The position numbers and the translations under genes are program-made. Under the pieces are notes generated by a model, which saw only the letters and a program-made list of their open reading frames with translations, searched no databases and was not told where the DNA came from. Below, one piece after another: positions 3,214 to 24,194 of a DNA stretch of 64,000 nucleotides. The DNA comes from a virus: positions 32,598-96,597 of the IMG/VR virus record IMGVR_UViG_3300009430_000001; one strand, 5' to 3'. How positions within the stretch are numbered: the first letter of the stretch is position 1; the number at the start of each line of letters is the position of its first letter.

Positions 3214-3283
3214 GGGGGTGAGTTGGGTGAAGAAAGAAAAGCGCCCCGAAGGGCGCTGGTATTGGGGAGCTTCTATTATCGCG

Positions 3284-4204
3284 TCAGAAGCCGGCGTCGT
3301 CAAGCACGGTGTCCGCGGTGGCATCCACGGTGGACAGCTGTTGTCCGGTGGTGTCGTAGTAAGCTTGCTCGCCTGCCACGGCAGCGGAACCAGCCGGCAT
3401 CAGGCCATAGCCCTGGAACGCACGCTTGATGCGCTTGACTGTTTCCAGCAGCTCTTCGATCGTGCTGGGTCCGTTGTACCAGCTGTTGTCGGAGAGCTTC
3501 ATCCAGCTTTTGCGATCAGGAGTGGGCACGGAGATCTCGAGGAATCGGGCGCGCTTGCCATTCCGCAGATCGATCCTGCACACGTCAAACAGCTGGCGGC
3601 TGTCGTCTTCCGACTGGCAGATCTCCGCCAGCGCGCCAAGGAAGCTGCGCACCGGGCCGGTGACGCCTGTGCTGCCATCGGGGCGATAGCTGACGGCATT
3701 GAAGTTCAGTTCGATGGCACGACCCTCGGTGTCGCTCATCAGGAAGCGCAGCCGATAGTTGAGCGCATAGGATGCATTCTCATCGGCGGGAGTCACCAGA
3801 AGAAGCATGTCCCGGGCAAATCCGATGATCTTGGATGTTCCGCTGTCTTCGTTGGTGGTTCCACCATCATCGGATACCGTGAAATTCACGGGCTTGTTTG
3901 CAGTCGCAGGTGTGACGGGCTGGAAAGGATTCTTGTACGCGCGGATCGGGGTGTGACCGACGACAGCTGCATCGTCCGGCGGCAGCTGGATCACCGCGGC
4001 TTCGGTCGGGGCCAGGGCGGAGGTCTCCTCGACTTGCTCGGCGACTTGCTCGGTGGCTTGCTCGACAGCTTGCTCAGCGACTTCGGGGATGCTCACGATC
4101 TCAGTTTGAACAGTGGTTTCAGTGGACGGCTCGAGCACTTCAGGGCTGAGTTTGGCGGGCTCGCGGGTACGGGTGGCGCGGGTACGGGTGGAATTCGTAG
4201 CCAT
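3284..4204 (-). CDS. hypothetical protein with acidic low-complexity N-terminus
   Basis: ATG 4204 (MATNSTRTR); EQAVEQATEQVAEQ repeats; 306 aa. Confidence 0.7.
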   Translation of the reverse strand: MATNSTRTRATRTREPAKLSPEVLEPSTETTVQTEIVSIPEVAEQAVEQATEQVAEQVEETSALAPTEAAVIQLPPDDAAVVGHTPIRAYKNPFQPVTPATANKPVNFTVSDDGGTTNEDSGTSKIIGFARDMLLLVTPADENASYALNYRLRFLMSDTEGRAIELNFNAVSYRPDGSTGVTGPVRSFLGALAEICQSEDDSRQLFDVCRIDLRNGKRARFLEISVPTPDRKSWMKLSDNSWYNGPSTIEELLETVKRIKRAFQGYGLMPAGSAAVAGEQAYYDTTGQQLSTVDATADTVLDDAGF

Positions 4205-4256
4205 TGGAAACAGATGAAGCAGATGAACGCGCTGCCTGTCACGCAGCACAAAGAAA

Positions 4257-4281
4257 AAAGGCCCCCGTGGAGGGAGCCTTT
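4257..4281 (-). repeat. hairpin repeat (plus strand AAAGGCCCCCGTGGAGGG), terminator-like copy
   Basis: Stem-loop followed by a U-tract on the minus strand; member of the ~19-copy family. Confidence 0.8.
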
Positions 4282-4301
4282 GAGTGGGAGGGAAAATCAA
4301 A

Positions 4302-4318
4302 ACTTAGACACAACGCGG
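4302..4318 (+). repeat. asymmetric motif copy 2
   Basis: ACTTAGACACAACGCGG, intergenic. Confidence 0.85.
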
Positions 4319-4328
4319 AGCGCAGGTC

Positions 4329-4946
4329 TCAGTCTTTGAATCTGTAGTGGTATGGCTTGTAGTGACTGGGATACATCGCATTGATGGGCCCGAGACGTGC
4401 ATTCTGTGCCTCAAGCTGCTCGAGGTCACGGCATGCACGTTCCATGGCGCTGTCACTGTCGAGCTTGGCGAGTAGTGGCAAGCAGGGAATGTAGTGCGTT
4501 GCGCCTTGGAATTTCTTGTTGCCATGGCAAATGATCGTGATGCCGCTGGTCAGCGTGTGATAAGCGCCGGTGCGCATGATCAAGCCGCTAGGCATATGGA
4601 TCATGAACAGCGGTTTGCAGATGCGCGTATTGTGGCTGGCATCATCGGGAAAACCTTCAGGCTCAGGAAGCCGTGGGTCGTCATGTGCCACGAGCTCGAT
4701 GCGATAGTCGCGTTGAGCATTGAACTCATCGAGTGGATCGTAGAGATCGCCGCCCCAGCCGACAGCGATCTTGGTCATGTCGTTAGTGTCAAGCTGTTGC
4801 TTGAGGTCTTGCCGGCGATCTAGTTCGATCGCAATGCGACCGAGGAAGTCGCGGTGGTTGTTGGGGAGTCGGGGTTCGATGTAGCTGTTGAGCATGAACT
4901 GCTTGGTTTTCTTGTCGGTGATACGTGATCCACGGACGTTGTTCAC
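4329..4946 (-). CDS. hypothetical protein
   Basis: GTG 4946 overlaps the TGA of the upstream gene (GTGA coupling). Confidence 0.6.
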   Translation of the reverse strand: MNNVRGSRITDKKTKQFMLNSYIEPRLPNNHRDFLGRIAIELDRRQDLKQQLDTNDMTKIAVGWGGDLYDPLDEFNAQRDYRIELVAHDDPRLPEPEGFPDDASHNTRICKPLFMIHMPSGLIMRTGAYHTLTSGITIICHGNKKFQGATHYIPCLPLLAKLDSDSAMERACRDLEQLEAQNARLGPINAMYPSHYKPYHYRFKD

Positions 4947-5491
4947 GTTTCCTCCTGCTTCTTGCGGTCTTCGCTCTCTTGGTGCTTCCATGTGCCCCAC
5001 TTCTCGATGTACTCTGTGGCGGTTGGCACGCGCTTCAGCTTGTGCACTTTGCGCCACTGCTCTTCAGTGGTGTCATGGAACTTGGCAGGGCCGCTGATTT
5101 CGTAAAGCTCGAGATCGAGGGTATCTATGCCTGCTTGAATCATCTGCGTCCACGTATTTGTGGGAGTCCAGGCTTGATCGTCTTCGCTCAGGTTGCGTTG
5201 CTGTATCTTGAGCTCTTCGACGTAACCCGTGCGAAGCACGGCCAAGGCCGCTCGCATAATGACGTGAATAACTAGCGCTGGCTGATGTCTGCTGATGCAC
5301 TCACGATAGGTGAAGTTTGTATAATTAAGTTTGTTCTCACAGCGTCTGATTATCGTGATCAGCTCTTTCACTGTGATGATGTCGTGGCGCCAGGCCACGT
5401 GCAGCAGTGCGTTGGCAACGTCTTGGTGAAGCTCAAGCAAATTGTTGTGGGCTTTGCCGTTTTTTTCAATCAGTCGGTTGTAGATGCTCAT
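4943..5491 (-). CDS. hypothetical protein
   Basis: 182 aa ATG ORF in the minus-strand operon. Confidence 0.65.
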   Translation of the reverse strand: MSIYNRLIEKNGKAHNNLLELHQDVANALLHVAWRHDIITVKELITIIRRCENKLNYTNFTYRECISRHQPALVIHVIMRAALAVLRTGYVEELKIQQRNLSEDDQAWTPTNTWTQMIQAGIDTLDLELYEISGPAKFHDTTEEQWRKVHKLKRVPTATEYIEKWGTWKHQESEDRKKQEET

Positions 5492-5520
5492 GTTGCCTCT
5501 TGTGGTTGAAGTGAATCCAG

Positions 5521-5835
5521 TTATTGATTGGCAGGTTCTTGGAGGATGTCAAACAGGCTGGCCCAGCCTTCAACAGAACCGCCATGGTTATTAATTACCT
5601 CTTTGGCCCTGGAGTTGAGTGGATCTATTTGCTGAACCATGAGGAAGTTGATTCCAGTTTGAGCGATTGCTATTTGACGGGCGTATTCGCTTTTACTGCG
5701 TGACTTGCGCATGGCAAGACTTGTAACTGTTGCTAGTGTGCAATCGACAAGATAGACGAATGCATGCTCGGTCGTGGTAAATTTTTTGGTGCGAAAGATG
5801 TTTTGATCTTTCTCGGATTTGGTGGCTTTTTTCAT
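5521..5835 (-). CDS. hypothetical protein (AT-rich)
   Basis: ATG 5835 (MKKATKSEK), ATGA-coupled to the upstream gene. Confidence 0.65.
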   Translation of the reverse strand: MKKATKSEKDQNIFRTKKFTTTEHAFVYLVDCTLATVTSLAMRKSRSKSEYARQIAIAQTGINFLMVQQIDPLNSRAKEVINNHGGSVEGWASLFDILQEPANQ

Positions 5836-6545
5836 GCTGCCTCCTGTAGTTGAATGAGTTTCTGGTCGAGTTGTCGTTTCCTGCTGCCGTGGGCGGGGAA
5901 CGCGATAATCACATGGGGTGGACGCTTCCAGCACAGGCGACAGCCGACACATTGCGGCGCACGTGGATCAGGTGCCAGCCTGGAGTGGGGGCACAGCACA
6001 GCGCGGTTGCCGCCGGCTGTGGTCCACGCCGTGCGCTTCTCGCCGGAAGGCACGATCAGGACGGCGTGCAAGCCGATCGCCACCGCGGCATCAGCCTGGG
6101 CCTCGAGCTCGAAGCTGAGGTTGATCGTGATCCGATGGCCCAGCAGCGCATCGAGGTGCGCCGGCTCATGTCGCCACTCCCGCCTGTGGGAGTACATGAA
6201 GGCGGGGCGCTTGCCCACGGCTGCGGACAGGGCGCCGAGGAAGCTGCGCACCTGGCCTGGCGTCTCCCCGGGGACGTCCCCTGCGACACCATATCGCAAT
6301 GGTGTTGTGGGCGGAAGACGAAAACGGACCCAGTCGATCATTTGGTCGAACTGCATCACGTCTTTGCCGATGCCGGCGCTGTAGTTGTCCCAGTGCCATG
6401 CCATGTAGCCCTGGTCGTGATAGCAGGTGCCATCATTCAATGGACAATCGCTGGGGCATGTGTTGCGGCTGGCGGTGATGGCAGCGATTGGGCCCAGCTT
6501 GTCGTTGTTGGTGGGGTACTTGCAGTGGAAGAAGTATTTGGTCAT
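5832..6545 (-). CDS. Cys-rich DUF7227/gp88-like protein (possible Fe-S or radical-SAM-related)
   Basis: N.KLGPI...TCPSDCP....CY, LRYGVAGD, CPH...CVGCRLC, IIAFPAHG motifs. Confidence 0.7.
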   Translation of the reverse strand: MTKYFFHCKYPTNNDKLGPIAAITASRNTCPSDCPLNDGTCYHDQGYMAWHWDNYSAGIGKDVMQFDQMIDWVRFRLPPTTPLRYGVAGDVPGETPGQVRSFLGALSAAVGKRPAFMYSHRREWRHEPAHLDALLGHRITINLSFELEAQADAAVAIGLHAVLIVPSGEKRTAWTTAGGNRAVLCPHSRLAPDPRAPQCVGCRLCWKRPPHVIIAFPAHGSRKRQLDQKLIQLQEAA

Positions 6546-6552
6546 GGTTTGA

Positions 6553-6786
6553 TCAGTATTCACCAGGAAACAGCACAATCTCGACTGGATAGCGGATCTC
6601 GCCTTTGTCATTGATCTCCACATCGTAGGGATCGCCAACGACGAATTCGCTTGGCTTGAGTCCAGCTCGAAAGAGCTTCTGCTCAACATCACGCATGATG
6701 CTGTGCCAGTCGGGTTCGGGATTCCAGTATTCCGGCGGCTCACTTGGTCGTGGGTCGCGGAACTGGCGGGGGTCGGTGGTAGCCAT
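6553..6786 (-). CDS. small hypothetical protein
   Basis: 77 aa ATG ORF in operon. Confidence 0.6.
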   Translation of the reverse strand: MATTDPRQFRDPRPSEPPEYWNPEPDWHSIMRDVEQKLFRAGLKPSEFVVGDPYDVEINDKGEIRYPVEIVLFPGEY

Positions 6787-6865
6787 GGAAGTGATGGAAA
6801 GTGGGTGGGGACTTATATGCCGTCAGAGCGCTTACAGTTGGCCAGCGACGGCAATGCCCCGGGGA

Positions 6866-7846
6866 TCAGGCCTTGATGCCGGCGAGTTCGCGGCAGAAGT
6901 CGCGAGCGACTTCGATGCGGCCCTTGTTGACTCCGAATAGCACGCGGCTGAACTTCTTGATGGCGTTCTGGCCGCTGGGGCTGGTCAGCACCTCAGTGAC
7001 GGCATTGAAGCCGTGCCAGGCGGTGCCGCGGACTCCAGGGATGTCGGTGCCGAGGCCGGTGGTCAGCGCTTCGACCATCGGGTTCCAGTCCCTCAGGTCC
7101 TCGAGCGTCTTGGCACGCACCGGCTTGCCGTCAGCCATGATCGGCCGGGCCAGCTCGGGGGCGTAGACGCGCTTGAGCATTTCGCGGAAGGCCTCGGTGT
7201 TCATCCTTGTTTCCGCGAACAGGTGGTAGTCCTGGACTTCGTCGTTGAAGGACTCCGTGGCGACATTGATGCTCTTGATCAGTCGCGTGATGTCGCTGTT
7301 GACACCTTTGCGGTGGGCCAGGCTGCGCTGGTTCTCGCTGCACATTGCAACTTGTAAAGTATTGCAACAAACCACACGCGTATCGGTGTAGAGAGTGCCG
7401 ACGCCAGTCTTGCCATCGTGGCCGAGGTAGCCGACGATGTAGCGCTCGATCTTGTCGTTGGCGAGTACGTTGTCTTCCAGGCCTTTGATCAGGCCAGTGA
7501 AGGCGACCTTGCGGCCTTCGTCGAGCACGACGAAAGTGTCGAGGATGATGTGGTCTTGAATGGCTTCAGCCATCTCGACCAGGCGCTCATTCTGCGCGAC
7601 CTCGTACTCATGCCCGGCAACGCCGAGCAGTTCGCCGGTGGTGCCGTGGATCAGGGCGCAGCGGTTGGCTTCGTGGGTCTGGTCGTCCCAGTTGTAGAAC
7701 AGGGGCTTCTTGATGACTTCGTAGTTGGCTTTGGCCATCTCGTAAGCCTGGCGGGGTGTGATGGTGATGTCATTGATGCAGAGCTCTTCGCCGTGCCAGG
7801 AGCGAATGCCGCGATTGGTGATTCCGGATTGGAAGTAGCTACCCAT
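6866..7846 (-). CDS. DUF932/DUF945 family phage/plasmid protein
   Basis: WHG...LGVAGHEYEVAQN...LDEGRKV...HDGK...RVVCCNTL...GTAWHGFNAVTE. Confidence 0.85.
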   Translation of the reverse strand: MGSYFQSGITNRGIRSWHGEELCINDITITPRQAYEMAKANYEVIKKPLFYNWDDQTHEANRCALIHGTTGELLGVAGHEYEVAQNERLVEMAEAIQDHIILDTFVVLDEGRKVAFTGLIKGLEDNVLANDKIERYIVGYLGHDGKTGVGTLYTDTRVVCCNTLQVAMCSENQRSLAHRKGVNSDITRLIKSINVATESFNDEVQDYHLFAETRMNTEAFREMLKRVYAPELARPIMADGKPVRAKTLEDLRDWNPMVEALTTGLGTDIPGVRGTAWHGFNAVTEVLTSPSGQNAIKKFSRVLFGVNKGRIEVARDFCRELAGIKA

Positions 7847-7903
7847 TTTCAGGAAGAATGCAGGTTTGGAAGGGGGTGGTGAATGCCCGTGTGGGCAATG
7901 AAG

Positions 7904-7929
7904 AAAGGCCCCCGCATGATGCGAGGGCT
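7904..7929 (-). repeat. hairpin repeat, extended-stem variant
   Basis: GGCCC-C-CGCA-TGA-TGCG-A-GGGCT; forms a U.G pair on the minus strand. Confidence 0.75.
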
Positions 7930-7960
7930 AGGAATCAGCGCAGCATCAGCTGCATGACAT

Positions 7961-8188
7961 TCAGAGCGACAGCGACTGTAAAGCCAATTTCGAGTAGGTC
8001 CCGGTAGCGTGCAGCTCTCTGATGATGTTCGCGGCGCGATTCAAGTCCACGTACTGTGTTGCCTCCCTTGGGTCGTTGACGTGCTGAATGCCGTTGGGCG
8101 GCAACGTCGATGAAGAAGGAAGGTGATTTGCCTTGAGGAAGGACGCGGAGTCTTGATCCAGAATGACGAAGCGGCATGAGCGGTGCAT
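7961..8188 (-). CDS. small hypothetical protein
   Basis: 75 aa ATG ORF; the alternative frame 7935..8177 looks less protein-like. Confidence 0.5.
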   Translation of the reverse strand: MHRSCRFVILDQDSASFLKANHLPSSSTLPPNGIQHVNDPREATQYVDLNRAANIIRELHATGTYSKLALQSLSL

Positions 8189-8220
8189 GGGGTGGATGGG
8201 ATGTCGGGTCGATTGTACGA

Positions 8221-8514
8221 TCAGGCAGACGCTACGGCAAGTCCATTGTAGTGGACTGAAACACTGTGTCCTGCGTCTGTAGTCGCAAGCACAGTTGATA
8301 GGTTGTTCTCGTTGGCGAGGTAGGAAGCGTGCATTTCCATGGCATGGAGCAGCTCAGCTTCGCTGGCGGCTTCGAATACGTAGCTCTCGAGTAGCAGGTT
8401 GTTGATCGGATCTTCGAAGCACACGTGAACCGTGGCCGGTCGCTTGACTGAGCGCACGGTGCTGTTGATCTTGCTGGCAGACGGAATGCGAAGTTCGCGA
8501 GACATGGGTCTCAT
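8221..8514 (-). CDS. hypothetical protein
   Basis: ATG 8514, 18 nt from the hairpin at 8532. Confidence 0.6.
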   Translation of the reverse strand: MRPMSRELRIPSASKINSTVRSVKRPATVHVCFEDPINNLLLESYVFEAASEAELLHAMEMHASYLANENNLSTVLATTDAGHSVSVHYNGLAVASA

Positions 8515-8531
8515 GGCGAAGGACGCAGAAC

Positions 8532-8600
8532 AAAGGCCCCCGTGGAGGGACCACGGGAGCCGGAGGGTTCTGTGTTTAGTCGGACTTAGACACAATGCGG
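8532..8600. repeat. hairpin repeat (8532-8552) plus asymmetric motif copy 3 (8583-8600)
   Basis: AAAGGCCCCCGTGGAGGGACC and GACTTAGACACAATGCGG. Confidence 0.85.
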
Positions 8601-8668
8601 AGCATCGGCCGGGGGATCAATCGTCGGGCGGCTCCAGGACCAAGTGGAAACGAAGCCGTGACGATCAA

Positions 8669-8965
8669 TCAGCGGGAGTGTAAACGTCGTCGTCGTTGTG
8701 CGCGGTCGAGTGCTTCGCTCGTTTCCAGGATTGGAGCTTCGCCGCGCTGGATCTTTTTTCCAGCTAGCACACGCTCGAGTTGATGGCGCGGGATGCGCTT
8801 CCAGTCGTTCTCGTGTTTGACATAGAAGTCAACGCGATCGATTCGCTTTGTTCCGCGGCTGTAACGAAAGATTGACGTCTTGATCTCAATGTTGTCGATG
8901 ATGGTCTTTTGAGATTCACGCTTATCAAGCGTAATGGCCTTGAGATCGTCGAGGGTGAGTGTCAT
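8669..8965 (-). CDS. basic hypothetical protein
   Basis: ATG 8965 (MTLTLDDLK), ATGA-coupled. Confidence 0.6.
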   Translation of the reverse strand: MTLTLDDLKAITLDKRESQKTIIDNIEIKTSIFRYSRGTKRIDRVDFYVKHENDWKRIPRHQLERVLAGKKIQRGEAPILETSEALDRAQRRRRLHSR

Positions 8966-9714
8966 GAGGCGGATTCGTCGTTGGTGTACTCCGATGTCCA
9001 ATACAGGAAGTCGTCACGCTTCTGCACGGGCATGATGATGAAGCGCAGAGACACGTCGCCCCAGGGCTTTTTGGTCTTGGACTTCATCTTTTCCCAGCTT
9101 TCTGAATTTATGCCGGAGCGGATCTCCATGGGCATGATGCTGGAGCTGAAGGCGAACTGTGGATGCTTGGCCTCCAGCTTGATGATGATCTCATTGATTA
9201 CCTTCATGTAGATCGGATCCCAGAGAATGGGCCGCAAAGCGTTCATCGAGTAGTGACAGGGGAAGATGTTATCGAATGCTTGTACGGTTGGGAATGCGTA
9301 AGTCGCTGGGATCGGCTCATGCGCCAGGCGCGCGTTCTCAAGGAAGATCGTACTGATCTTGCCTTCGTCGTTGAATGCGAGAACAGCGGCGTCATTGGAC
9401 ATCCACTTTTCGAAGACCTTGAAGTGGATCAGGAGCTCGGGGATCTCCTGGAAATCACCGGGAGTGTGATCACTGAGGCCTGCTCTCAGCGCAACATGGC
9501 CGTTGGTCGCTTCGATGTAGTAGCACTCGAGCGTGGCATCTGAGCGGATGCGCACGAATTCGAGTGCTTCTATGCCCAGGGGTTTGGCGAGCTTGGCGAT
9601 TTGTGAAGCGGCCCAAAGCAGGGCGGTGGGCAGGCGCAGCGTACCGCCGGCCGCGGAAGGAGTGTCAGGCACGGTGTGAATGACGGTGGAACCGTAGCTG
9701 ATGATGAGAATCAT
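8962..9714 (-). CDS. possible DNA polymerase III beta-clamp-like protein
   Basis: YIEATNGHVALR resembles the ATDGHRL motif of sliding-clamp domains. Confidence 0.4.
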   Translation of the reverse strand: MILIISYGSTVIHTVPDTPSAAGGTLRLPTALLWAASQIAKLAKPLGIEALEFVRIRSDATLECYYIEATNGHVALRAGLSDHTPGDFQEIPELLIHFKVFEKWMSNDAAVLAFNDEGKISTIFLENARLAHEPIPATYAFPTVQAFDNIFPCHYSMNALRPILWDPIYMKVINEIIIKLEAKHPQFAFSSSIMPMEIRSGINSESWEKMKSKTKKPWGDVSLRFIIMPVQKRDDFLYWTSEYTNDESAS

Positions 9715-15232: not shown

Positions 15233-15303
15233 GGGTGTCCATGAGAGGGGACACAGAACGAAGGCCCCCGTGGAGGGGGCCATGGAGCGGAGGGGCTTGC
15301 TGG

Positions 15304-15831: not shown

Positions 15832-15902
15832 TGGTTGGTGAGTGAAGGACATGAAAACGAGGACCCCGCCTGATGGCGAGGGCTCGTGGTGGGCATAAGC
15901 CC

Positions 15903-15948: not shown

Positions 15949-16116
15949 TCAGAACGACACGTTGCGCGCGCGGCGGAAGCCGACCGTGCCATCAGGGAAC
16001 TGGATGCGCACGAAGCCGTGCGGTGCAGGCGTCAGTTGACGCACAGGGCAGCTGGGGCCTTGCACGGGCACAGCGGCGGAAGCGGTGGCGCGAACGGTCG
16101 TGGAAGTGGGGGCCAT
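15949..16116 (-). CDS. small hypothetical protein
   Basis: ATG 16116 (MAPTSTTVRA), downstream of hairpin 16148. Confidence 0.5.
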   Translation of the reverse strand: MAPTSTTVRATASAAVPVQGPSCPVRQLTPAPHGFVRIQFPDGTVGFRRARNVSF

Positions 16117-16177
16117 GGAGTGTTCCATGAAGTGGGCAGCAAACCGAGGCCCCCGTGGAGGGGACCAGAGGCTGGGG

Positions 16178-16645: not shown

Positions 16646-16705
16646 GGTCAGATGGAAGGGCAATGAGCCAAGGCCCCCGGGGAGGGGCCAATGGGGGCAA
16701 TGATT

Positions 16706-17170: not shown

Positions 17171-17255
17171 TGCGAAATCAGCAGAACACATGAAAAAGGC
17201 CCCCGCGGAGGGGGCCATGGAGTCGGAGGGTTACTCTGCATCCAGGAGTTGAACA

Positions 17256-18434
17256 TTGCCAGCGAGGCTTCCGAATTCTGAGGAGTGGCGCAGGGCCGTG
17301 ATCGATGCCGCCGGCTATGGCGCCGCGGCTTCGGGAGCTGGTGCCCTGGCGGCGCTGTTGATGCGCCCCGAGCAGGCAGAGCCTGGGATCGAGGGCCGGC
17401 CAGATCCGGATGCACCGCCGACGCAGGAGCGTGATCAGGCGGTGATCGATGGTGCATTGGCCGGCCTGGCCGGTGGTGCACTGGGGGCTGGTGCCGCTTC
17501 GCTGTGGATGAACCGCAAGGCGGGTAGCCCTGAAGTGGTGGCCCGGGTGCAGAGCACTCGAGGGGGTGGGGGTCAGCCGCCTGCTGCGGCGCCTCCCCCC
17601 GCTCCGAAAGGACCCCCGGGGGGTGGCGGTGAGATCGAGATCGATCTGGATGGCAGTGCCAGGATGGCATTGAAGGCCGTGAATGATCAGGTGATACGTG
17701 CAGTGCCGACACTTTCGAAGGCACTGGGGATTCCGGTTGAAGAGATGGCTGAGATTGTTGCAGGTGAAGCTGCTGATTTTATGGCAAAAGCTGATCCAGC
17801 TTTGTATGGTGAGATGATTCAGATGGCTCGCAAGTATGATTTTGATAAAGCTGAGAATCTTGATAATTTTGGCGCAGAGGCAAGGCGGAGACTGGGATGG
17901 ACAATGAGGGAAGCAGCTGATAACGCTGCGGCGGAAATACGCAAAAGTGAAGACAGCCTTAGTGGGGCTGTCCAGAATGCCTACAAAGAAATGTACGATG
18001 TGCATCCTTTGAATAAAGCATTGTACTTGTTGATGCATGGAGTTGGCTCTGATCCTGACAAAGAGTCAAGAGCTGCGCGGATGGCGGCAGCTGCCATGAT
18101 TGATGCATCAATGGCGAAAACGCCGTATGGCGGGGTGTTTGGGCATGGAATCAGGGCACCTATCATGAATGCAGAGAATACGCTAGATATGGCAGATCAG
18201 TTGATAGCGGAAACCGGCAGTGGTCCTTACCACCTTCTGCGTGAATTGGCTCATGGTGTTGGTGACAATTCACTGGATGACTGGGAGCTGCCAGAGCATT
18301 TGCGGCCTGGCGCTCCGGTGTCTCCTCATGAGAACTGGTGGTATGCGACGCCTGAGAATCGATGGCTGAATCGCCACGATCCCCAGCAGCCCATGAGACA
18401 CCCGGCCTGGCAGCCGCGGCCACGCAGGACCTAG
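17256..18434 (+). CDS. late-type protein with Gly/Ala-rich hydrophobic segments
   Basis: 392 aa; preceded by TACTCTG (17232) and AGGAG. Confidence 0.7.
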   Translation: MPARLPNSEEWRRAVIDAAGYGAAASGAGALAALLMRPEQAEPGIEGRPDPDAPPTQERDQAVIDGALAGLAGGALGAGAASLWMNRKAGSPEVVARVQSTRGGGGQPPAAAPPPAPKGPPGGGGEIEIDLDGSARMALKAVNDQVIRAVPTLSKALGIPVEEMAEIVAGEAADFMAKADPALYGEMIQMARKYDFDKAENLDNFGAEARRRLGWTMREAADNAAAEIRKSEDSLSGAVQNAYKEMYDVHPLNKALYLLMHGVGSDPDKESRAARMAAAAMIDASMAKTPYGGVFGHGIRAPIMNAENTLDMADQLIAETGSGPYHLLRELAHGVGDNSLDDWELPEHLRPGAPVSPHENWWYATPENRWLNRHDPQQPMRHPAWQPRPRRT

Positions 18435-18964
18435 ATGGTCCCGTTGGGGTAGAAGATGTTGCTCTCGCTTGCAGTGGGGAACACCCTTGCCAGGTGATCA
18501 GCACCGATCACCAGTGATTCTGGGTGTTGAAACCTGCTTGCGAAGTCAAGGTAGACGTAAACGGCTTGCAACGGGAAGCCGGGAATGGAAGGAGCTGACT
18601 CGAGGCCAAGCTCGGCCTCGATCTGGGCTTGACGCATGCCAGGCCGACTGACGTTGCCGGTGGCCTGAAGGACTTGGCTGACTCGTCGTTGCAGGTGGTA
18701 GGCGTAGACGAGGATCTCGTCTGCAATTGCTGCGATGGTGGCGTAGTCAGCCTTGATTGAGGCGAAGTATGCCTCTTCTGCGTCGCTCAGTTCGTCGTCT
18801 TCTGGCTGGGTGTGAGCAAGGAGCTCAGGCCAGCCGAAGGGGCCACCTTCTCCTTCAGGAAGAGTGAAGTGGCTCTCGGTATGCGCTGTGCGCAGAAATT
18901 CTGCTGCGCCTTGGGGGTTGATGTGAGCGAGGTCGAGGAAATGCGTACGGTTGAAGGGGGCCAT
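18431..18964 (-). CDS. hypothetical protein, paralog of 16706..17170
   Basis: ATG 18964, 25 nt from hairpin 18989. Confidence 0.7.
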   Translation of the reverse strand: MAPFNRTHFLDLAHINPQGAAEFLRTAHTESHFTLPEGEGGPFGWPELLAHTQPEDDELSDAEEAYFASIKADYATIAAIADEILVYAYHLQRRVSQVLQATGNVSRPGMRQAQIEAELGLESAPSIPGFPLQAVYVYLDFASRFQHPESLVIGADHLARVFPTASESNIFYPNGTI

Positions 18965-19051
18965 GGAGAAGATGCAACAGCATCGAACAAAGGCCCCCGA
19001 GGAGGGCAAGGGAGCGTGTGTACTCTGTGGGACAGCAGATGAGGGACCGCA

Positions 19052-19252
19052 ATGATTGGCAGGCTTGCTGTGGGAGCATTGCTTGGCGCTGCAGGCGGTG
19101 GCCTGCTGGGGACGATCCCGGGAGTGCTGGCGCAGAACAATGTCGGAATTGATTTGGGCCCAATGGGCGCCTGGGGCTATAGCTTGGATCCCGTTAGCGG
19201 AAATGTAGTGTACACCGGCAGAGGGCCGGGTGGATTCAGTGAGCTCACTTAA
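19052..19252 (+). CDS. small protein with signal/TM-like N-terminus
   Basis: TACTCTG at 19021; hydrophobic Gly-rich N-terminus. Confidence 0.5.
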   Translation: MIGRLAVGALLGAAGGGLLGTIPGVLAQNNVGIDLGPMGAWGYSLDPVSGNVVYTGRGPGGFSELT

Positions 19253-19258
19253 TCGACA

Positions 19259-19477
19259 GTGCCGGGATTTCATCCAACCGTAGGCGCCTTGTCTGGCGCT
19301 TTGGTTGGCGCGATGGCCTTGGCAGCGCTTGAGATAATTGATCAGGCTTATGACAAAGAGGGTTGGGATGCGGCGAAGCAGCGGGTTGATGAATTCATCA
19401 ATAATCTGCATCGCCAGAGGGCTGAGCGCCAAGGGGCTGAACGGCCTAGGCGGATGATCCGCATTCAGCAGGCTTGA
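19259..19477 (+). CDS. small membrane-anchored protein
   Basis: Hydrophobic N-terminal helix followed by a charged helix. Confidence 0.5.
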   Translation: MPGFHPTVGALSGALVGAMALAALEIIDQAYDKEGWDAAKQRVDEFINNLHRQRAERQGAERPRRMIRIQQA

Positions 19478-19507
19478 GTACCCTGGGGGCACAGGCTTCT
19501 TCTTTCC

Positions 19508-20119
19508 ATGGCAGTCAAGAGATACGCCGGTAGTAGCAATGTCGTGGATGACATCTTGGCGGCTGTTGGCGACAATGCATATACTAGGGCGTGGAGTGAC
19601 GCCATGGGAAATGCGATACGGCCTGTGGATAGAATGATTGCTTCTGACTCTGATCGGTTTGCGTCTTCCTTGAAAGAAATGGAAGGGCTGATTAACCGTG
19701 GAGTCGAGGAAGCGAAAGGGCAGGGGTTATCGCAGGCTGCAGGGGAGCAGCTGCTTGCAAGGTTGAATCGGCTTGATCCTAGCGGTGCTCTCGCTGAAAA
19801 CATGGGAGCTGGGCTGAGTCAGGCAGTGGAAAGAGCAAAGCGGAATGGGTCTTCGGTGGGGAGTGAATTTGCGGGTTTGGTATTTGATGCTCGAGAAGAT
19901 CTGAAACCGGAGTTGATCGATGCGTATCTGAAGCAGCATCCGCCCTCTGATGTTCACATGATGACCAAGGCGGGCGGATTGCTTCATGCAGCAGCAGGCA
20001 TGGCGCCTTCTGCGTATGGCATCCCGGCTGCGGGAGCAGGTCTTGCTGCGTGGGGCCTGCATGATTATCTGCAGGCCCAGCAGCAGGCGGAGAAGGAGTC
20101 TCAGCTTCCAATGAGCTGA
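19508..20119 (+). CDS. late-type protein with C-terminal glycine-zipper-like segment
   Basis: TACCCTG at 19479; N-terminus MAVKRYAG; C-terminus GIPAAGAGLAAWGL. Confidence 0.7.
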   Translation: MAVKRYAGSSNVVDDILAAVGDNAYTRAWSDAMGNAIRPVDRMIASDSDRFASSLKEMEGLINRGVEEAKGQGLSQAAGEQLLARLNRLDPSGALAENMGAGLSQAVERAKRNGSSVGSEFAGLVFDAREDLKPELIDAYLKQHPPSDVHMMTKAGGLLHAAAGMAPSAYGIPAAGAGLAAWGLHDYLQAQQQAEKESQLPMS

Positions 20120-20123
20120 GGGC

Positions 20124-20441
20124 TTAGCAGTGATTGAGCTCTTCTGCGAGGAGCTGGTTGTCCAGTAAGGCTGCCTGGATCTCGTCGGGAGACATGTTGT
20201 CAGCTCCTCTACTGCGGTTGAGATCAGCGGCTTCGGGAATGATGTTACTCCAGTCGTCGGTGAGCTCGGGGCAGTTGTGTTGGCTGATGACGTGAGAAAG
20301 ATCTCGCTGCTCCCAGAATTCTTTGATTTCATGGGGGTCATCGAGTTCTTCAGGCGTAACAGCCAGCATGTCGGAGAAGTCTCCTCCGTAGGGCTCGGCT
20401 CGACTGTCGAGGTATGAGGTGAGATTGAATGGTAGGTTCAT
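20124..20441 (-). CDS. small protein with possible HNH/His-Me finger
   Basis: DLSHVISQHNCPELTDDWSNIIPE...LNRSRG. Confidence 0.45.
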   Translation of the reverse strand: MNLPFNLTSYLDSRAEPYGGDFSDMLAVTPEELDDPHEIKEFWEQRDLSHVISQHNCPELTDDWSNIIPEAADLNRSRGADNMSPDEIQAALLDNQLLAEELNHC

Positions 20442-20446
20442 CGTGG

Positions 20447-21334
20447 TCAAGAGGAGAAGAAGGCTGTTATGTTGTAAGTCGTGGTGTTGGTGATTATTCT
20501 TGCCAAGGTGACGGCATTAGAGTTGGTGAATTTTGTTGATTGTTTTTGATGTGGTTTTAGCAACAGGGTGTTGACATCTAGGGCGTCTTCGAGCAAGAGC
20601 TGGGGAAAGAAGCCGTGGAGTGGGTTGTTGATGTATTTTCTGTGCCATTGAATGGACTTGCGGGGAGCAGCTAAAGATGATATAGCTAAAGAATTGTCTT
20701 TGAATTCGTTTAGGATGTTTTGGTAGTCTGCGACAAGATGTCTGTTGGTGATTTCCTTTGAAGAAATAAATGCTATTTCTTCGTCTTCCAGTTGGGTGAT
20801 AAGTCGCTTTCTGCCTTCGATCCTCTGGGTTAGAGGTGAGCTGATGATGCCAAGTGAGGCAAATGCCAAAATGCCCGTTGCAGCATCGCCCAAGAAGGCT
20901 GGAAAGTCGTATTGCTTTGCTCTTTTAAGTCGGCTTTCTTTGATTCGTAGTTCGTTGTAGTAGATTTCGTTGAAGCGGGTGATTTTGGTTAAAATGGAAT
21001 GAGCGTCTTTGGCAATGCGCTGATTCTTGAGGATTTTACGTTCAAGATTTGCATGTAGTGATCCCGGCTGTATGATGTCATATAGCCGGGTTTGTCCTGA
21101 TGGTTTTTGATAGACCTGGGCAAATAGGTGATCACCTGCCCTGTATTGACAGAACAGGTCAGCAGCCTCTGATCGATGTTGTGACCGTCTGTCGAAGCAG
21201 GTGATTTCAGTTGGTGGTCCGTTTTCAGGGATGAGGGTCAGGCGCCTGCCAAGTCGGAATGGGATGACTTCAGCGACGGCGCCACTGATGAGTCTGGTAG
21301 TAGCGAAAATGTTTGGATTTTGAAAAGTAGTCAT
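20447..21334 (-). CDS. AT-rich hypothetical protein (moron-like)
   Basis: 295 aa; markedly lower GC; coiled-coil plus one hydrophobic segment. Confidence 0.65.
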   Translation of the reverse strand: MTTFQNPNIFATTRLISGAVAEVIPFRLGRRLTLIPENGPPTEITCFDRRSQHRSEAADLFCQYRAGDHLFAQVYQKPSGQTRLYDIIQPGSLHANLERKILKNQRIAKDAHSILTKITRFNEIYYNELRIKESRLKRAKQYDFPAFLGDAATGILAFASLGIISSPLTQRIEGRKRLITQLEDEEIAFISSKEITNRHLVADYQNILNEFKDNSLAISSLAAPRKSIQWHRKYINNPLHGFFPQLLLEDALDVNTLLLKPHQKQSTKFTNSNAVTLARIITNTTTYNITAFFSS

Positions 21335-21436
21335 GTTGGCGATGGGGTGAAAGATTGAGCGAGCGTCAGCGAGCTGGCGCTAATGAAAAAAACCACCCCG
21401 TAGTGGGGTGGCTTTTGAGTCATGAAGGCTCTGGAC

Positions 21437-21847
21437 TCACTTGGCGCGACGCAGCGCGTTCCCTTCCGGGTAGCGTTTGTCAGCCAGATGGTCCGAGAAG
21501 GCGTAAACGCCAATGCCAGACCGCTGAACGGTCTTGTTCTCCTCGTCTCGGGTGACGACGCCGAGACTTAGTCCGCAGCCGTTTTCAACGGGAGACTCGA
21601 ACGAGATGAACAGAGGGCCTGCCTCGTGAAAGACGCCGTCGGCGTTCTCGAGGGTGATGCGGGCGTCCTTACGGGCAGCCGCAGCGGACTCCTTGCGGCA
21701 CTCGGGAGAACCAGCAACGGGAGCACTGGCGGACTCCTTCTTGGAGTCCTGGGGCGCCGAGCCATTGCCATTACTGGCGGGGCCTTCGACCTTCCTTTCG
21801 GTGGTCTCGGCACTGGTCTCGACGGTTTGGGTGGCGGCTTCAGCCAT
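21437..21847 (-). CDS. hypothetical protein
   Basis: 136 aa ATG ORF between two hairpin repeats. Confidence 0.65.
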   Translation of the reverse strand: MAEAATQTVETSAETTERKVEGPASNGNGSAPQDSKKESASAPVAGSPECRKESAAAARKDARITLENADGVFHEAGPLFISFESPVENGCGLSLGVVTRDEENKTVQRSGIGVYAFSDHLADKRYPEGNALRRAK

Positions 21848-21937
21848 GATGGATGAACTTGGGATTGTGTGGTGCCCATCTCCACTGAGGGCATAAAAAC
21901 AAGGCCCCCGTGGAGGGGCCTTTGGATGAGGAGGGGA

Positions 21938-22096
21938 TCAGCGCATGACGCGCTGAATGACTGGAGACGGCACTGGCCGGTCTAGTTGACCGAATGTGCC
22001 GTATGCGGAGCGGAGCTCGCGCCATTGCACGATGGTCATGCAGATGACCATACCTGCAATGGTGACGCAGGCATGAGGGGTGTAATCGCGATTCAT
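21938..22096 (-). CDS. 52 aa membrane microprotein (not in ORF track)
   Basis: MNRDYTPHACVTIAGMVICMTIVQWRE...; bounded by hairpins 22125 and 21901. Confidence 0.5.
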   Translation of the reverse strand: MNRDYTPHACVTIAGMVICMTIVQWRELRSAYGTFGQLDRPVPSPVIQRVMR

Positions 22097-22153
22097 GGTG
22101 AATCACGCGAAGGGCATAAAAGGAAGGCCCCCGATTACTCGAGGGCCTTGAGG

Positions 22154-22327
22154 TTAGATATTGGAATTGATGGCGATCAATTCTTCGCATTCTTGATGAA
22201 TGCGATCAAGGATTTCCATAAGATCTGGATCTTGATCCATCTCCCATGCAATCCAGAAATGATTGCGGGAATCCTGTTCAAAGGATTCAAGGGCGGCCTG
22301 AGCGGCCTCGGAGTATGGAGCATCCAT
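22154..22327 (-). CDS. 57 aa acidic microprotein (not in ORF track)
   Basis: MDAPYSEAAQAALESFEQD...; TGATG-coupled to the upstream gene. Confidence 0.55.
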   Translation of the reverse strand: MDAPYSEAAQAALESFEQDSRNHFWIAWEMDQDPDLMEILDRIHQECEELIAINSNI

Positions 22328-22530
22328 CAGAGGAGCTCCAGGACGATTTCATCTATGGCGTCCTGAAGGGAGGCGCCAGCCTTCATGCGGGAATCGACAT
22401 CCCGAGCCACGTGGCCCAGGTTGTCATAGCCCATCATGAAGACGGATGAAAGAGGCTGATACGCCTCAATGGCCAGCGCGATGCGCTGGAGATGGAGCGG
22501 CGCGGCGCTCCAGGAAGGATTGAGAGCCAT
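22327..22530 (-). CDS. small hypothetical protein
   Basis: ATG 22530, 24 nt from hairpin 22554. Confidence 0.6.
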   Translation of the reverse strand: MALNPSWSAAPLHLQRIALAIEAYQPLSSVFMMGYDNLGHVARDVDSRMKAGASLQDAIDEIVLELL

Positions 22531-22582
22531 GGCTCTATTGAAGGACACTGATGAAAGGCCCCCGTGGAGGGGCCTTGTGGGG

Positions 22583-22819
22583 CTAGCCGTAGTTGGCTGG
22601 GAGTTCAACGTCTTTGGCGAGGATCTCGTGGAAGAGATCGTCGGCCTGAGGTGTGAACTCAGTGCCTTCACGGCGTTGATCGAGCACTTGCTCGAAGGTG
22701 AGTGGGGAGTCGCACGGCATGAGTGGTGCCGTGCGGATGATGGGAACGTCCCACATGTCGTGGAGCGATCCCATGGAGTCCTCCATGGTGTAGGAGGACA
22801 TGAAGAATTGAGCTTGCAT
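22583..22819 (-). CDS. small hypothetical protein
   Basis: ATG 22819, 27 nt from hairpin 22846. Confidence 0.55.
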   Translation of the reverse strand: MQAQFFMSSYTMEDSMGSLHDMWDVPIIRTAPLMPCDSPLTFEQVLDQRREGTEFTPQADDLFHEILAKDVELPANYG

Positions 22820-22881
22820 GATGCTGCGCTCGAGGGACAGTAAACAAAGCCCCCCGTGGAGGGGGCCTTGTGGCGATGGAG

Positions 22882-23055
22882 CTACTCGAGCTCTGCAAGC
22901 CACATGGATTCCATGTGATGGCCAATGAGCATTGCCGCAGCATAGTCAGGGTCTGTGCTGGGCGGAATGTCAGTGTTGTGGCGAAGTCTTGCACGCTCGA
23001 TTGCTTGATTGAGTGAGTTGATCATCCATGAGTGATCAACGAGTGAGATTGTCAT
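22882..23055 (-). CDS. small hypothetical protein
   Basis: ATG 23055, 28 nt from hairpin 23083. Confidence 0.55.
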   Translation of the reverse strand: MTISLVDHSWMINSLNQAIERARLRHNTDIPPSTDPDYAAAMLIGHHMESMWLAELE

Positions 23056-23252
23056 TGCTGATGCAATTGAAGGACACTGATTAAAGGCCCCCGCGGAGGC
23101 CAATGCCGGCTCCAGAGAGGGTTTGCCGGCCAACTCCTGCGCCTGAAATTGCCTCCAGGGGGCAAAGTGTAATGACCGGGGGTAATTGTGAGACTGCTTG
23201 CTATACTAGCCGTCGCAGTTTGATATACCCCCGGGGTGTAAGTGTGGGACTT

Positions 23253-23273
23253 CCGCATTGTGTCTAAGTCTAG
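23253..23273 (-). repeat. asymmetric motif copy 5 (inverted)
   Basis: Reverse complement is CTAGACTTAGACACAATGCGG, identical to 2814..2834. Confidence 0.85.
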
Positions 23274-23735
23274 CCAAAGCGAAAGATCCCTGTGGTACCA
23301 ACGGGTCTGGGGCCTGTGGGTATAGCTGAATAGCTGGATGCATGGCTGTATGTCGACATGCGCCGCTGGTCGCGGCAGCAGTCGTATTGAATGTGGAGAT
23401 GGGCTGATGGATGGGTGAGATCCCTTGCAGCGACTGGGATCTCGAGGAATATGCGCCCGGTGCCGCACCGTCTGGGCGGTATGCGGCGGGGCTTATGAAG
23501 GCTTACGTGCGTTTGCTGTAGATGTGCACAGGGGGGCACTAGCAGCCGAGGTAGCACGTGACGCTTATGAGGACGCATGCACGTGAGCTGCAGATGCACA
23601 CGGGGGCATTGGCAGCTGATGATGCGCATGGAGCTGATGCAGCATTGGTATGCTGATGATTCATTTGCTTTCATGCGAGCGGAAGCGAGCATGGGGAGCA
23701 AATGAAAAAAGAGTCCCCGTAGGGACTCTGGTGCA

Positions 23736-23999
23736 CTACTTGGCGTAGATGCAGACGCGGGCATTGCCCGCCTTAGATTTGATGACCTTTCCGAAGGCGT
23801 CAGGCGCCTCCTCGTCTGGCCCGAAGCCAGACAGGACGTGCACGCCGATGAGGGAAGCCAAGAACTCTTCGGCCTTGACTTCAGACCCGAGGGCCTGAGC
23901 AAGCCTGGCCTTGAACTTCTTGGTGAAGCCCAAGTTACCAAGCCAAAGTACGTCCTTGGTGTCGGTGGAGGCGTTGGCCTGAGTGGTGGCGTTAGCCAT
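23736..23999 (-). CDS. hypothetical protein, first gene of the leftward arm
   Basis: 87 aa; ATG 28 nt from hairpin 24027. Confidence 0.7.
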   Translation of the reverse strand: MANATTQANASTDTKDVLWLGNLGFTKKFKARLAQALGSEVKAEEFLASLIGVHVLSGFGPDEEAPDAFGKVIKSKAGNARVCIYAK

Positions 24000-24194
24000 G
24001 TGTCGCTACTGCGAACTACAGCAATCAAAGGTCCCCGTGGAGGGACACATGATTCTGTAGTGGTATGTGTAGCTTTGGTATGTGTGTCCTGATTTAGGGG
24101 TAGGTGGGGTTTTTTATGCAGGGCCCCCGTTGGAGGGCTAGGGAGGGGCGTGTCTCGATTATGTTTTTAACGATTTTCCGCGCGCGTATAGCGG

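Follow-up and report, generated by a model that had tools for sequence, protein, structure and literature searches.

The early genes of this phage, an uncultured virus with a genome of 96,597 bp whose nearest isolate is Synechococcus phage S-EIVl and which is unrelated to T4, are arranged on the minus strand, and copies of a short unit built around a GC hairpin (HP1) lie between them. The host group is likely Cyanobacteria. The window that we analyzed comprises 64,000 nt of this genome (positions 32,598 to 96,597), and coordinates refer to the window unless the genome is named.

A previous sequence-only reading had listed about 19 copies of the hairpin. The array is real, with 15 copies recovered by a covariance model and three further sites belonging to a related terminator-type class, but the listed site 24120 is weak and doubtful (Table 1). 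The model, R1 (45 nt, 7 bp), was trained on the 12 canonical copies and also found the three extended-stem copies. When it was run on the whole genome, every match was on the minus strand, between genome positions 36834 and 56648 (window 4237-24051), with none outside this span. The 18-nt core GGCCCCTCCACGGGGGCC, with up to three mismatches allowed, gave 10 minus-strand and no plus-strand matches, versus 0.17 expected by chance. The three terminator-type variants differ in their stem and end in a long U tract; together with the R1 copies, they are intergenic, lie within 3218-24051, and share the strand of the early genes. Across 185,579 species genomes, the core pattern was matched only 31 times, each time as a single copy and never in a multi-copy genome; the multi-copy state is confined to the present phage lineage. 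The hairpin also matched no Rfam family at the gathering threshold (the window gave only two group I introns), and at E values up to 1 nothing relevant to the unit appeared in the region 15000-24300.

Table 1. Hairpin sites in the window; the start-codon distance is counted from the end of the HP1 3' arm.
Copy	Class	Coordinates	Strand	R1 (bits)	Folding (kcal/mol; z)	Start codon (nt)	Remarks
24027	canonical	24007..24051	-	46.5		30	heads first early gene (23999-23736); no minus-strand gene upstream; plus-strand ORF 24244-24366 upstream matches PHROG 516 and is conserved in sister L083
23083	canonical	23063..23107	-	39.6		30	
22846	canonical	22826..22870	-	52.1		29	
22554	canonical	22534..22578	-	52.1	-16.3; -3.8	26	stop codon 6 nt upstream
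22125	extended stem	22103..22151	-	23.5	-20.4; -5.2	29	11 bp, loop GUAA
21901	canonical	21880..21924	-	47.9		55	second hairpin UGCCC/GGGCA
18989	canonical	18969..19013	-	39.2		27	divergent junction, plus-strand ORF from 19052; heads paralogue of 17170 gene
17193	canonical	17175..17219	-	45.5		27	divergent junction, plus-strand gene from 17256
16670	canonical	16649..16693	-	50.3		26	loop CCCC
16148	canonical	16125..16169	-	42.4		31	product MAPT...
15859	extended stem	15838..15889	-	15.7	-16.5	29	16-nt CTTAGACACAATGCGG site directly upstream
15261	canonical	15240..15284	-	49.7		30 (GTG)	heads overlapping-gene run 15.2-8.7 kb; second hairpin GUGUCC/GGACAC
8532	canonical	8512..8556	-	50.1		29 (or 20)	
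7904	extended stem	7884..7932	-	13.9	-16.6	60	9 bp, loop UCA; second hairpin UGCCC/GGGCA
4257	canonical	4237..4281	-	46.3		55	A tract, hairpin, U6 tail
23705	terminator-type	23689..23731	-	13.7 (E 0.2)	-15.1; -5.0		8-bp stem, U-rich tail then CAUUUGC; 4 nt past first-early-gene stop codon; same tail also in L083
21386	terminator-type	21388..21414	-	missed	-16.9; -4.4	58	10-bp stem, U7 tail
3241	terminator-type	3218..3260	-	10.5 (E 1.5)	-14.3	27	UUCG loop, U4CU3 tail
24120	doubtful	24118..24146	-	missed	-10.1; -0.5		6-bp hairpin in early-transcript leader; UG box absent, no gene

Anatomy of the unit and its placement

Each unit consists of HP1, a mostly U-rich linker of 9 nt, a near-invariant UG (UGYCC) box, and the start codon, and the UG box often begins a second hairpin that is variable in sequence. 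The UG lies 9 nt past HP1 in both the phage's own copies and those of its sister phages. The start codon follows HP1 by 26-31 nt at 13 of the 19 sites and by 55-60 nt at four (4257, 7904, 21386, and 21901), in agreement with the short and long spacings noted before; in the sister phages, it is mostly 27-31 nt away. The distance from the preceding stop codon to HP1 varies from 4 to 68 nt, while that from HP1 to the TG is fixed. The leaders between UG and AUG are more stable than their shuffles (mean z -1.0, n=34), and in the leader hairpins the 5' arm begins at the UG while the stem sequence changes from copy to copy.

HP1 folds with -14 to -20 kcal/mol (z -3.8 to -5.2). The stem changes of the extended variants, which had been described as compensatory, indeed leave uninterrupted stems of 9-11 bp (-16.5 to -20.4 kcal/mol, z -3.8 to -5.2), and all three variants gain stem length through compensated loop insertions. 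These insertions support the view that HP1 would act as a single-strand (RNA-type) structure, because they would shift the half-site spacing of a duplex-DNA operator, yet keep the hairpin. All of the aligned copies (32 of 32) retain a U.G pair that would read as a C.A mismatch on the template strand, as expected from the proposed fold on the transcribed strand. Yet the mRNA-sense strand is favored by only 0.5-2.3 kcal/mol over the opposite one, and the strand argument is therefore weaker than had been implied.

HP1 is conserved not only in structure but also in primary sequence, both within one phage and from phage to phage. Its loop and upper stem are almost invariant (C9-C13 and G16-G19 in alignment A3), and the loop is lineage-specific, being mainly CCAC here versus CCCC in six sister sequences. 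The three extended variants have lost the loop sequence and kept the remainder of the unit. The tail behind HP1 contains at least five U within its first 8 nt in 9 of 13 of the phage's own copies and in 9 of 20 sister copies; five of these 20 have only two U within 8 nt, and several are G- or A-rich. An upstream A tract accompanies HP1 in some copies, and a generic terminator scan picks up many of them.

With regard to the genes, each of the three divergent junctions has an HP1, whereas the two convergent ones have none, and the copies 17193, 18989, and 24027 adjoin no minus-strand gene end, just as the sequence-only reading had stated. By our reading of the gene map, a hairpin occupies about 16 of the roughly 19-20 minus-strand gaps that measure at least 30 nt. 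There are no hairpins inside the overlapping-gene runs, and paralogous genes are each preceded by their own unit. Long-U canonical terminators form a separate class within the same arrays. As HP1 is present at divergent and missing at convergent junctions, it is more than a terminator, and its distribution supports the earlier conclusion that the unit follows gene or operon starts rather than gene ends.

Sister phages and recombination breakpoints

The sister set comprises two IMG/VR genomes and three to four metagenome contigs. Sisters carry the unit with CCCC in place of CCAC, and although it heads unrelated genes there, the UG box at +10 and the AUG spacing are kept. Only one early protein is common to the present phage and sister G002, the product of an antisense-embedded gene of unknown function, and the first-gene products have no detectable relatedness.

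The hairpin had been proposed to supply homology for gene gain and loss. Five homology breakpoints, one between L134 and L083, one between L083 and G003, and three between G002 and G003, are located at HP1 or no more than 28 nt away; among them is a 241-nt cassette that lies between two HP1 copies where a sister has a single HP1. These comparisons, all made between sister phages, support the proposal that the hairpin marks breakpoints of gene gain, loss, and replacement in sister phages. The proximity of HP1 to the breakpoints is partly automatic, since phage mosaic joints generally fall at gene boundaries.

A proposed punctuation of the early transcripts

The reading that we prefer, and to which we give about an even chance, is that the unit is an RNA punctuation element, in which an attenuator or 3'-end hairpin is joined to the next gene's leader and which also provides recombination homology. 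It would act at the RNA level, as intercistronic punctuation of the early and middle transcripts from the minus strand. HP1, as a GC hairpin of 7-11 bp of the intrinsic-terminator type with a UU-rich tail, would attenuate transcription and/or form the protected 3' end of the upstream message, and the fixed-register sequence past it (linker, UG/UGYCC, often a second hairpin, and AUG) would be the leader of the next gene. The 5' end of this leader may arise by cleavage within the U-rich linker or by initiation near the UG. As a repeat of about 45-60 nt stands before almost every gene or operon, it would therefore also offer homology by which cassettes of leader and ORF could be inserted, deleted, replaced, or duplicated between successive hairpins. 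What the sequences show directly is the make-up, strand, and spacing of the unit, its location relative to genes, its retention in sister phages, and the breakpoints; the termination, cleavage, and stabilization steps of this model are what we infer.

Several points speak against the punctuation model. Serial true terminators without internal promoters would starve the downstream genes, so that the model requires read-through, antitermination, or undiscovered promoters. Divergent junctions and the array start offer no upstream message to terminate or protect, a plain terminator or stabilizer would not require a conserved HP1 sequence, and the two-U tails of five sister copies fit poorly. The scarcity of Shine-Dalgarno motifs, which had been taken as a hint at a role in translation, holds for the array, but it is a genome-wide trait (17 of 98 predicted starts have such a motif) and so does not speak for such a role. 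The likeness to the RNase III sites of T7, in which a 3' hairpin stabilizes the upstream message, lies in hairpins that separate the genes of a polycistronic early transcript one by one. T7 sites span about two helical turns with an internal loop, and with 7-11 bp against about 20 bp of double-stranded RNA, HP1 is too short for this type, so that this analogy falls.

A less likely but possible reading is that the unit holds a non-canonical promoter, either as a PeSL-like terminator-promoter composite or as a hairpin-type promoter. HP1 and the T-rich linker would then serve for recognition and melting, with transcription beginning at or beside the invariant TG (pyrimidine at -1, purine at +1), and the second hairpin would form a stem-loop at the 5' terminus of a short leader lacking a Shine-Dalgarno motif. 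This would explain why the unit precedes each transcription restart (17193 and 18989 at divergent junctions, 24027 at the array start) and is missing at convergent ends, and why the HP1-to-TG spacing is constant while the distance to the stop codon is not. A conserved HP1 with a lineage-specific loop is typical of co-variation between a promoter and its polymerase or factor, distinct long-U terminators share the arrays, and sigma-70-type sites are not enriched in the early region, which leaves early transcription without another visible signal. However, the Pfam scan of 79 ORFs found no RNA polymerase or sigma factor, the sole region-4-like match being a 127-aa HTH and RHH protein, and the two-barrel DxDGD polymerase motif was found only in the primase. 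No family or solved relative was detectable for a 1380-aa virion-block protein, so that a hidden polymerase could lie there. Within the unit, TAnnnT- or TTGACA-like hexamers of a sigma-70-type promoter were not found at fixed positions, and the hexamer at the -10 position has no A at -11. The compensated stem extensions also fit a single-strand structure and not a duplex recognition site.

Coliphage N4 has three hairpin promoters, which are formed on the template strand and read by a giant virion RNA polymerase. The unit resembles them in placing a short GC hairpin a fixed few nucleotides ahead of the putative start of early-gene transcription, but it occurs in 15-19 copies, the non-template strand folds better, and none of the 79 ORFs matched such a polymerase family.

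That the hairpins are ordinary intrinsic terminators, with their nearness to start codons and mutual similarity resulting from a compact genome and from repeated duplication or gene conversion, appears rather improbable. The GC stem of 7-11 bp with its tetraloop and mostly U-rich tail, the occasional A tract, and the position of most copies 4-31 nt downstream of a stop codon are all terminator-like. Cyanobacteria, the likely host group, are not known to have Rho and rely on intrinsic terminators. Unlike terminators, however, the units are conserved in sequence, have the UG box and start codon at set distances even before unrelated sister genes, and lack the expected placement at transcription-unit ends, with three copies not following any co-directional gene end and both convergent ends bare. 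Poor U tracts in some sisters and the separate long-U class in the same arrays likewise disagree with this view.

We regard as very improbable that a phage protein binds at HP1, which would then be either a translational operator or a nut-like antiterminator loading site that coordinates all early genes. The near-invariant, lineage-specific loop and upper stem and the fixed AUG distance would suit such a site, but three copies have lost the loop sequence while keeping the rest of the unit, and G002 shares no early protein except the antisense-embedded one.

Least probable of all is that the hairpins are integron- or shufflon-like sites of site-specific recombination that actively move cassettes: they flank cassette indels and genome positions 16945-17322 encode a small serine-recombinase catalytic domain, but this recombinase of 125 aa lies about 20 kb off the array with no link to it, and the breakpoints are scattered over HP1 and the 28 nt downstream of it, which is more in line with homologous exchange than with a fixed crossover. 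Integron attC sites are imperfect palindromes of 57-141 nt with GTTRRRY cores and an integrase nearby; the alignment contains no such cores, and no tyrosine recombinase was found among the scanned ORFs.

Relation to described phage elements

The promoter-early stem-loops (PeSL) are regulatory cassettes of T4-type phages, in which a composite motif containing a G/C-rich stem-loop recurs between genes, most densely where the early genes are small ORFans (Arbiol et al., 2010, PMC2839356; Comeau et al., 2014, PMC4122927). The present array, for which PeSL had been named as an analogue, shares these features, as well as a motif variant particular to each lineage and indel or replacement ends between close relatives (here the sister phages) that fall in the motif. 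A stable stem-loop with terminator capacity also belongs to PeSL; the predicted hairpin and its U tail here may act in this way. The analogy does not extend to the consensus sigma-70 promoter and AT-rich upstream element of PeSL, as there are no -35/-10 boxes here and the mere 26-31 nt between hairpin and AUG contain no TAnnnT box. One conserved RNA-type hairpin at a set distance ahead of nearly every early gene or operon, together with gene gain, loss, and swap at the hairpins of relatives, thus amounts to a novel version of the "regulatory cassette" design known from phage early regions.

Start-associated sequences (SAS) and their extended inverted repeats (ESAS) of Cluster K mycobacteriophages occur in 11-19 copies per genome and in one orientation. 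They are restricted to the non-structural half and linked to translation starts, roughly half of them are directly preceded by an imperfect inverted repeat whose spacer varies, and their function is unknown (Pope et al., 2011, PMC3203893). Each SAS is a box of 13 bp at the start codon that includes the ribosome-binding site (PMC3203893), whereas here it is the hairpin that is conserved; it stands 26-31 nt before the start, is followed by a terminator-like tail, lacks a Shine-Dalgarno motif, and is dissimilar in sequence. Copy number, single orientation, restriction to the non-structural half, linkage to starts, and a lineage-specific consensus are common to both.

Anatomy, copies and folding of the hairpin unit

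Most early genes and operons on the minus strand are preceded by a conserved GC hairpin (HP1), which forms a unit with a linker and a UG box. The core GGCCCCTCCACGGGGGCC, searched with at most 3 mismatches, gave 10 matches, all on the minus strand, compared to 0.17 expected by chance, and repeat finding showed that the similarity of the copies runs on into both flanks. A covariance model (R1) was built from an alignment without gaps of 12 canonical copies (A3), and in the whole genome it detected these copies, three extended-stem variants and nothing else, all on the minus strand at window positions 4237-24051. The sequence-only reading had counted about 19 copies, 15 of which are firm members by this model; three further sites are relatives in which the stem differs, the U tract is long and the tail reads U-run-CAUU(U/A)GC, and one is doubtful, being a weak hairpin. 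An Rfam search matched the element to no family. As the core pattern had only 31 single scattered matches and no multi-copy case in 185,579 species genomes, HP1 is not a host-genome repeat.

The register of the unit was read after anchoring the copies on the 3' arm. HP1 has 7 bp and a CCAC tetraloop closed by a U.G pair, the linker of 9 nt starts with UU and is U-rich in most copies, and the near-invariant UG that follows is usually part of UGYCC. The start codon lies 26-31 nt from HP1 at 13 sites and 55-60 nt at four, whereas the distance from the upstream stop codon to HP1 varies from 4 to 68 nt. Because the former distance is fixed and the latter variable, the unit is registered on the downstream gene.

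HP1 folds with -14 to -20 kcal/mol (z -3.8 to -5.2), and the three variants have a longer stem due to compensated insertions in the loop, in line with the compensatory stem changes described before. It had also been proposed that the fold works on the transcribed strand, for which the U.G pair in 32/32 aligned copies speaks, but the complementary strand is only 0.5-2.3 kcal/mol worse in folding. A formal covariation test on HP1 was not significant because the stem hardly varies, and a previous consensus fold based on MAFFT gave no information. Compared to shuffled versions, the leaders between UG and AUG are folded more stably (mean z -1.0, n=34 leaders), and the 5' arm of a second hairpin begins at UG, with stem sequences that vary between copies (for example GUGUCC/GGACAC, UGCCC/GGGCA, GAUGC/GCAUC and GCUGU/ACAGC). 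For these two reasons, we regard a second, variable hairpin as part of many units, though not of all.

Gene context and possible functions

The codon-usage map supports three plus-strand genes inside the minus-strand array. HP1 units are present at all three divergent junctions (17193, 18989 and the array start at 24027), whereas neither of the two convergent gene ends has one. By our reading of the gene map, a hairpin is found in about 16 of some 19-20 minus-strand gaps of at least 30 nt, and runs of overlapping genes, such as that at 8.7-15.2 kb, have no HP1. As the element is present at divergent junctions and missing at convergent ends, it heads genes and operons, which upholds the initial view that it tracks gene starts and is at odds with termination as its sole role. 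Units 17193 and 18989 head paralogous genes (E 2e-14, the 17170/18964 pair), and units and genes were therefore duplicated together. A paralogous family whose products start with MAPF or MAPT has four genes in the array, each with its own hairpin unit.

Three features, namely the strand, the stem extensions by compensated insertions and the tail rich in U, speak for HP1 as a single-strand structure of the terminator type, most likely RNA. The fixed register with UG box and AUG and the presence at transcription restarts lead us to argue that the unit may also define the beginning of the next message. The reading that we favour, with confidence that is middling rather than high, is an RNA punctuation unit: HP1 would attenuate transcription or form a protected 3' end, the next leader would come in fixed register after it, and the repeat would also offer homology for recombination.

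The strongest rival reading places a non-canonical promoter in the unit, with a start at UG, which would account for the positional logic and the sequence conservation. It is a poor match to the strand bias, however, and lacks a polymerase or factor, since no phage RNA polymerase or sigma factor was found in 79 ORFs, where the only region-4-like match was a 127-aa HTH and RHH protein; we regard it as a minority possibility. No sigma-70-type promoter was detected in or near the unit, and such sites are not enriched in the early region. With respect to leaderless promoters, no TAnnnT was seen by eye at -12 to -7 from AUG. Somewhat speculatively, HP1, linker and UG could constitute a self-contained transcription start signal of a previously undescribed kind, an idea that we consider rather unlikely. 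This would be either a hairpin-dependent promoter for an unrecognised phage polymerase, such as a large virion protein without family, or terminator-coupled re-initiation, in which host RNA polymerase would release one message and start the next about 10 nt downstream. Either form, if true, would explain the fixed-distance hairpin at each early gene without a Shine-Dalgarno (SD) motif and the absence of a visible ordinary promoter, and a promoter or coupled stop/start site would be a new type of transcription signal.

Plain terminators, which would share the U-rich tail, are improbable given the distribution over gene junctions, and in sister phages (see below) the U tract is weaker, with just 2 U in 8 nt in 5 of 20 tails. 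A protein operator or nut-like site is very improbable. The compensated loop insertions keep the hairpin, whereas the half-site spacing of a duplex operator would change. A search for a trans-acting RNA complementary to the UG box showed no enrichment. The missing SD motifs are not special to the early genes, since they are rare genome-wide: a GGAG-like motif at -18 to -4 occurs in 17 of 98 predicted starts. Many starts throughout the genome have the context CCAUGGC.

The closest known design is that of the promoter-early stem-loop (PeSL) cassettes of T4-type phages (PMC2839356, PMC4122927). The analogy drawn before thus holds for the design, but the promoter that defines PeSLs is missing from the HP1 unit. 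The start-associated sequences (SAS/ESAS) of Cluster K mycobacteriophages (PMC3203893) are alike in copy number, orientation, start association and lineage-specific inverted repeats. New here are the lineage and the compact promoter-less form, with the start codon 26-31 nt from the hairpin. The unit poses a sharp question, namely where the primary and processed RNA ends lie relative to hairpin and UG.

Exchange of cassettes in sister phages

Pattern scans found the HP1 unit in the IMG/VR genomes G002 (90,162 bp, complete by CheckV) and G003 (38,936 bp) and in the metagenome contigs L083, L134 and L145, with one copy in L099. The structural genes of G002 and G003 have 65-72% DNA identity to this phage, and the early regions have essentially no genes in common with it; a comparison of the first early proteins among the phages revealed no homology. 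The sister-phage unit has the HP1 loop CCCC instead of CCAC, a 9-nt linker, UG(Y)CC and AUG at 27-35 or about 50 nt, and L083 contains 10 units in 6.1 kb, roughly one per ORF. The long-U terminator-type class was found again with the same tail. The uniformity of the HP1 loop inside each lineage and its difference between lineages suggest either homogenisation or a trans-acting factor with which the loop co-varies.

Five homology breakpoints lie at the unit. Between L134 and L083 (92.6% identity over 723 nt), the match extends 2 nt past the HP1 3' arm, beyond which the genes differ, and the alignment of L083 with G003 reaches the 3' end of the array's first HP1 and no further. The other three are from G002 and G003. 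In one, G003 carries a 241-nt cassette (unit and 60-aa ORF) flanked by two HP1 copies; G002 has one HP1 at this place, whose left side matches one G003 copy and whose right side matches the other. In another, an ORF is swapped between two consecutive units, with homology stopping 28 nt after one HP1 and returning 26 nt before the next, and in the last, G003 has an insertion directly after a hairpin, namely a 431-bp gene that brings its own UG-box leader. One more indel, 668 bp in G002, is not at HP1 but about 85 nt upstream of the first copy. As mosaic joints tend toward gene boundaries anyway, the five breakpoints are to be read with this caveat, and only the 241-nt cassette is specific evidence of exchange between repeats. 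The suggestion that the repeat provides homology for gene gain, loss and shuffling is borne out by these cases in sister phages. Site-specific recombination sites are the least probable explanation of the unit. A 125-aa ORF outside the window has a serine-recombinase (Resolvase) catalytic domain and no DNA-binding domain; no link to the HP1 array was found. Regulatory-cassette shuffling, known from T4-type phages, is thus seen in an unrelated lineage, in a more compact form and without a recognisable promoter.

Relatives of the phage and other signals

The 96,597-bp record has 123-bp direct terminal repeats, and the window is its right-hand 64 kb (32598-96597), with mainly non-structural minus-strand genes at about 1-24,000 and a plus-strand virion block from about 24,240 on. 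Pfam gave no family for most large ORFs; PHROGs recognised the large terminase and a virion protein. A DNA search of GenBank phages found no close relative, and neither did the portal-like and 1380-aa proteins as queries against IMG/VR and JGI metagenomes. The 1380-aa protein had two Logan homologues and nothing in the PDB sequence search and the ESM Atlas. The nearest GenBank isolate is the Synechococcus phage S-EIVl, a polar freshwater cyanophage (portal-like protein 49% identical), which makes a cyanobacterial host plausible. Only packaging and capsid genes are common to S-EIVl, the S-EIVl-like 60-kb contig G001 and this phage, and HP1 is absent from both relatives. S-EIVl has its own repeat, GTCCYNAGCATGACRTTAAACTGC, before several minus-strand genes, a small palindrome with a TAAACT box, whose TGTCC recalls the UG box. 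The lineage is almost uncharacterised, most proteins having no family match, and in such genomes repeated intergenic signals are the sole handle on gene expression; with the HP1 unit, the boundaries of transcripts and cassettes can readily be mapped in this phage and its relatives.

Coordinates of features (window positions of this phage unless a sequence is named)
Feature	Sequence	Position	Strand	Remark
Long-U class		3241, 21386, 23705		
Weak hairpin		24120		
Genes inside array		17256-18434, 19052-19252	+	
Gene inside array		19508-20119	+	sole gene within variable array conserved in G002 (34-51% aa)
Convergent gene ends		18431-18434, 20119-20124		
MAPF/MAPT family		15949-16116, 16178-16645, 16706-17170, 18431-18964	-	
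Region without convincing ORF		~23110-23700	-	~600 nt
CTTAGACACAAYGCGG		2819-2834, 4303-4318, 8585-8600, 15905-15920, 25331-25346, 44102-44117	+	
CTTAGACACAAYGCGG		23253-23268	-	
GCGTGCGCGTGGAAA	L083	5704-5718	-	
GCGTGCGCGTGGAAA	L251	3101-3115	-	
GCGTGCGCGTGGAAA	G002	about 6190-6210		
CGCGCGCGGAAAA		~24180-24200	-	then CATAAT
GTCCYNAGCATGACRTTAAACTGC	S-EIVl (L060)	~28000-43000	-	
Group I introns		44289-44516, 45313-45597	+	RF00028, 72.8 and 50.5 bits
Hairpin after capsid gene		46780-46923	+	
Serine-recombinase ORF (L253)	whole genome	16945-17322	+	

The asymmetric site CTTAGACACAAYGCGG has seven copies compared to 0.08 expected by chance and is probably a regulator-binding site. Three copies, in antisense orientation, are flanked by a stop codon and an HP1 unit (4257, 8532, 15859); another copy precedes the TACTCTG box of the capsid leader by 5 nt, and yet another the ATG at 25351 by the same distance. 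In G002, G003 and L083, a GC-alternating box, GCGTGCGCGTGGAAA, precedes the first HP1 by 60-75 nt, and this phage has just the loosely similar CGCGCGCGGAAAA; the box may belong to the actual early promoter or to an origin. The region without convincing ORF, between the strong terminator-type hairpin that follows the first early gene and the next unit, contains many repeated words (e.g., GCATGC and CATCAGC) and might encode a non-coding RNA or serve as an origin of replication. Rfam identified two group I introns in the region of the capsid gene. The hairpin that follows this gene shows reversed arms (GGGGGCC...GGCCCCU) and a U4 tail followed by a TACACTG box, and the hairpin of the late genes therefore differs from the early-array family.
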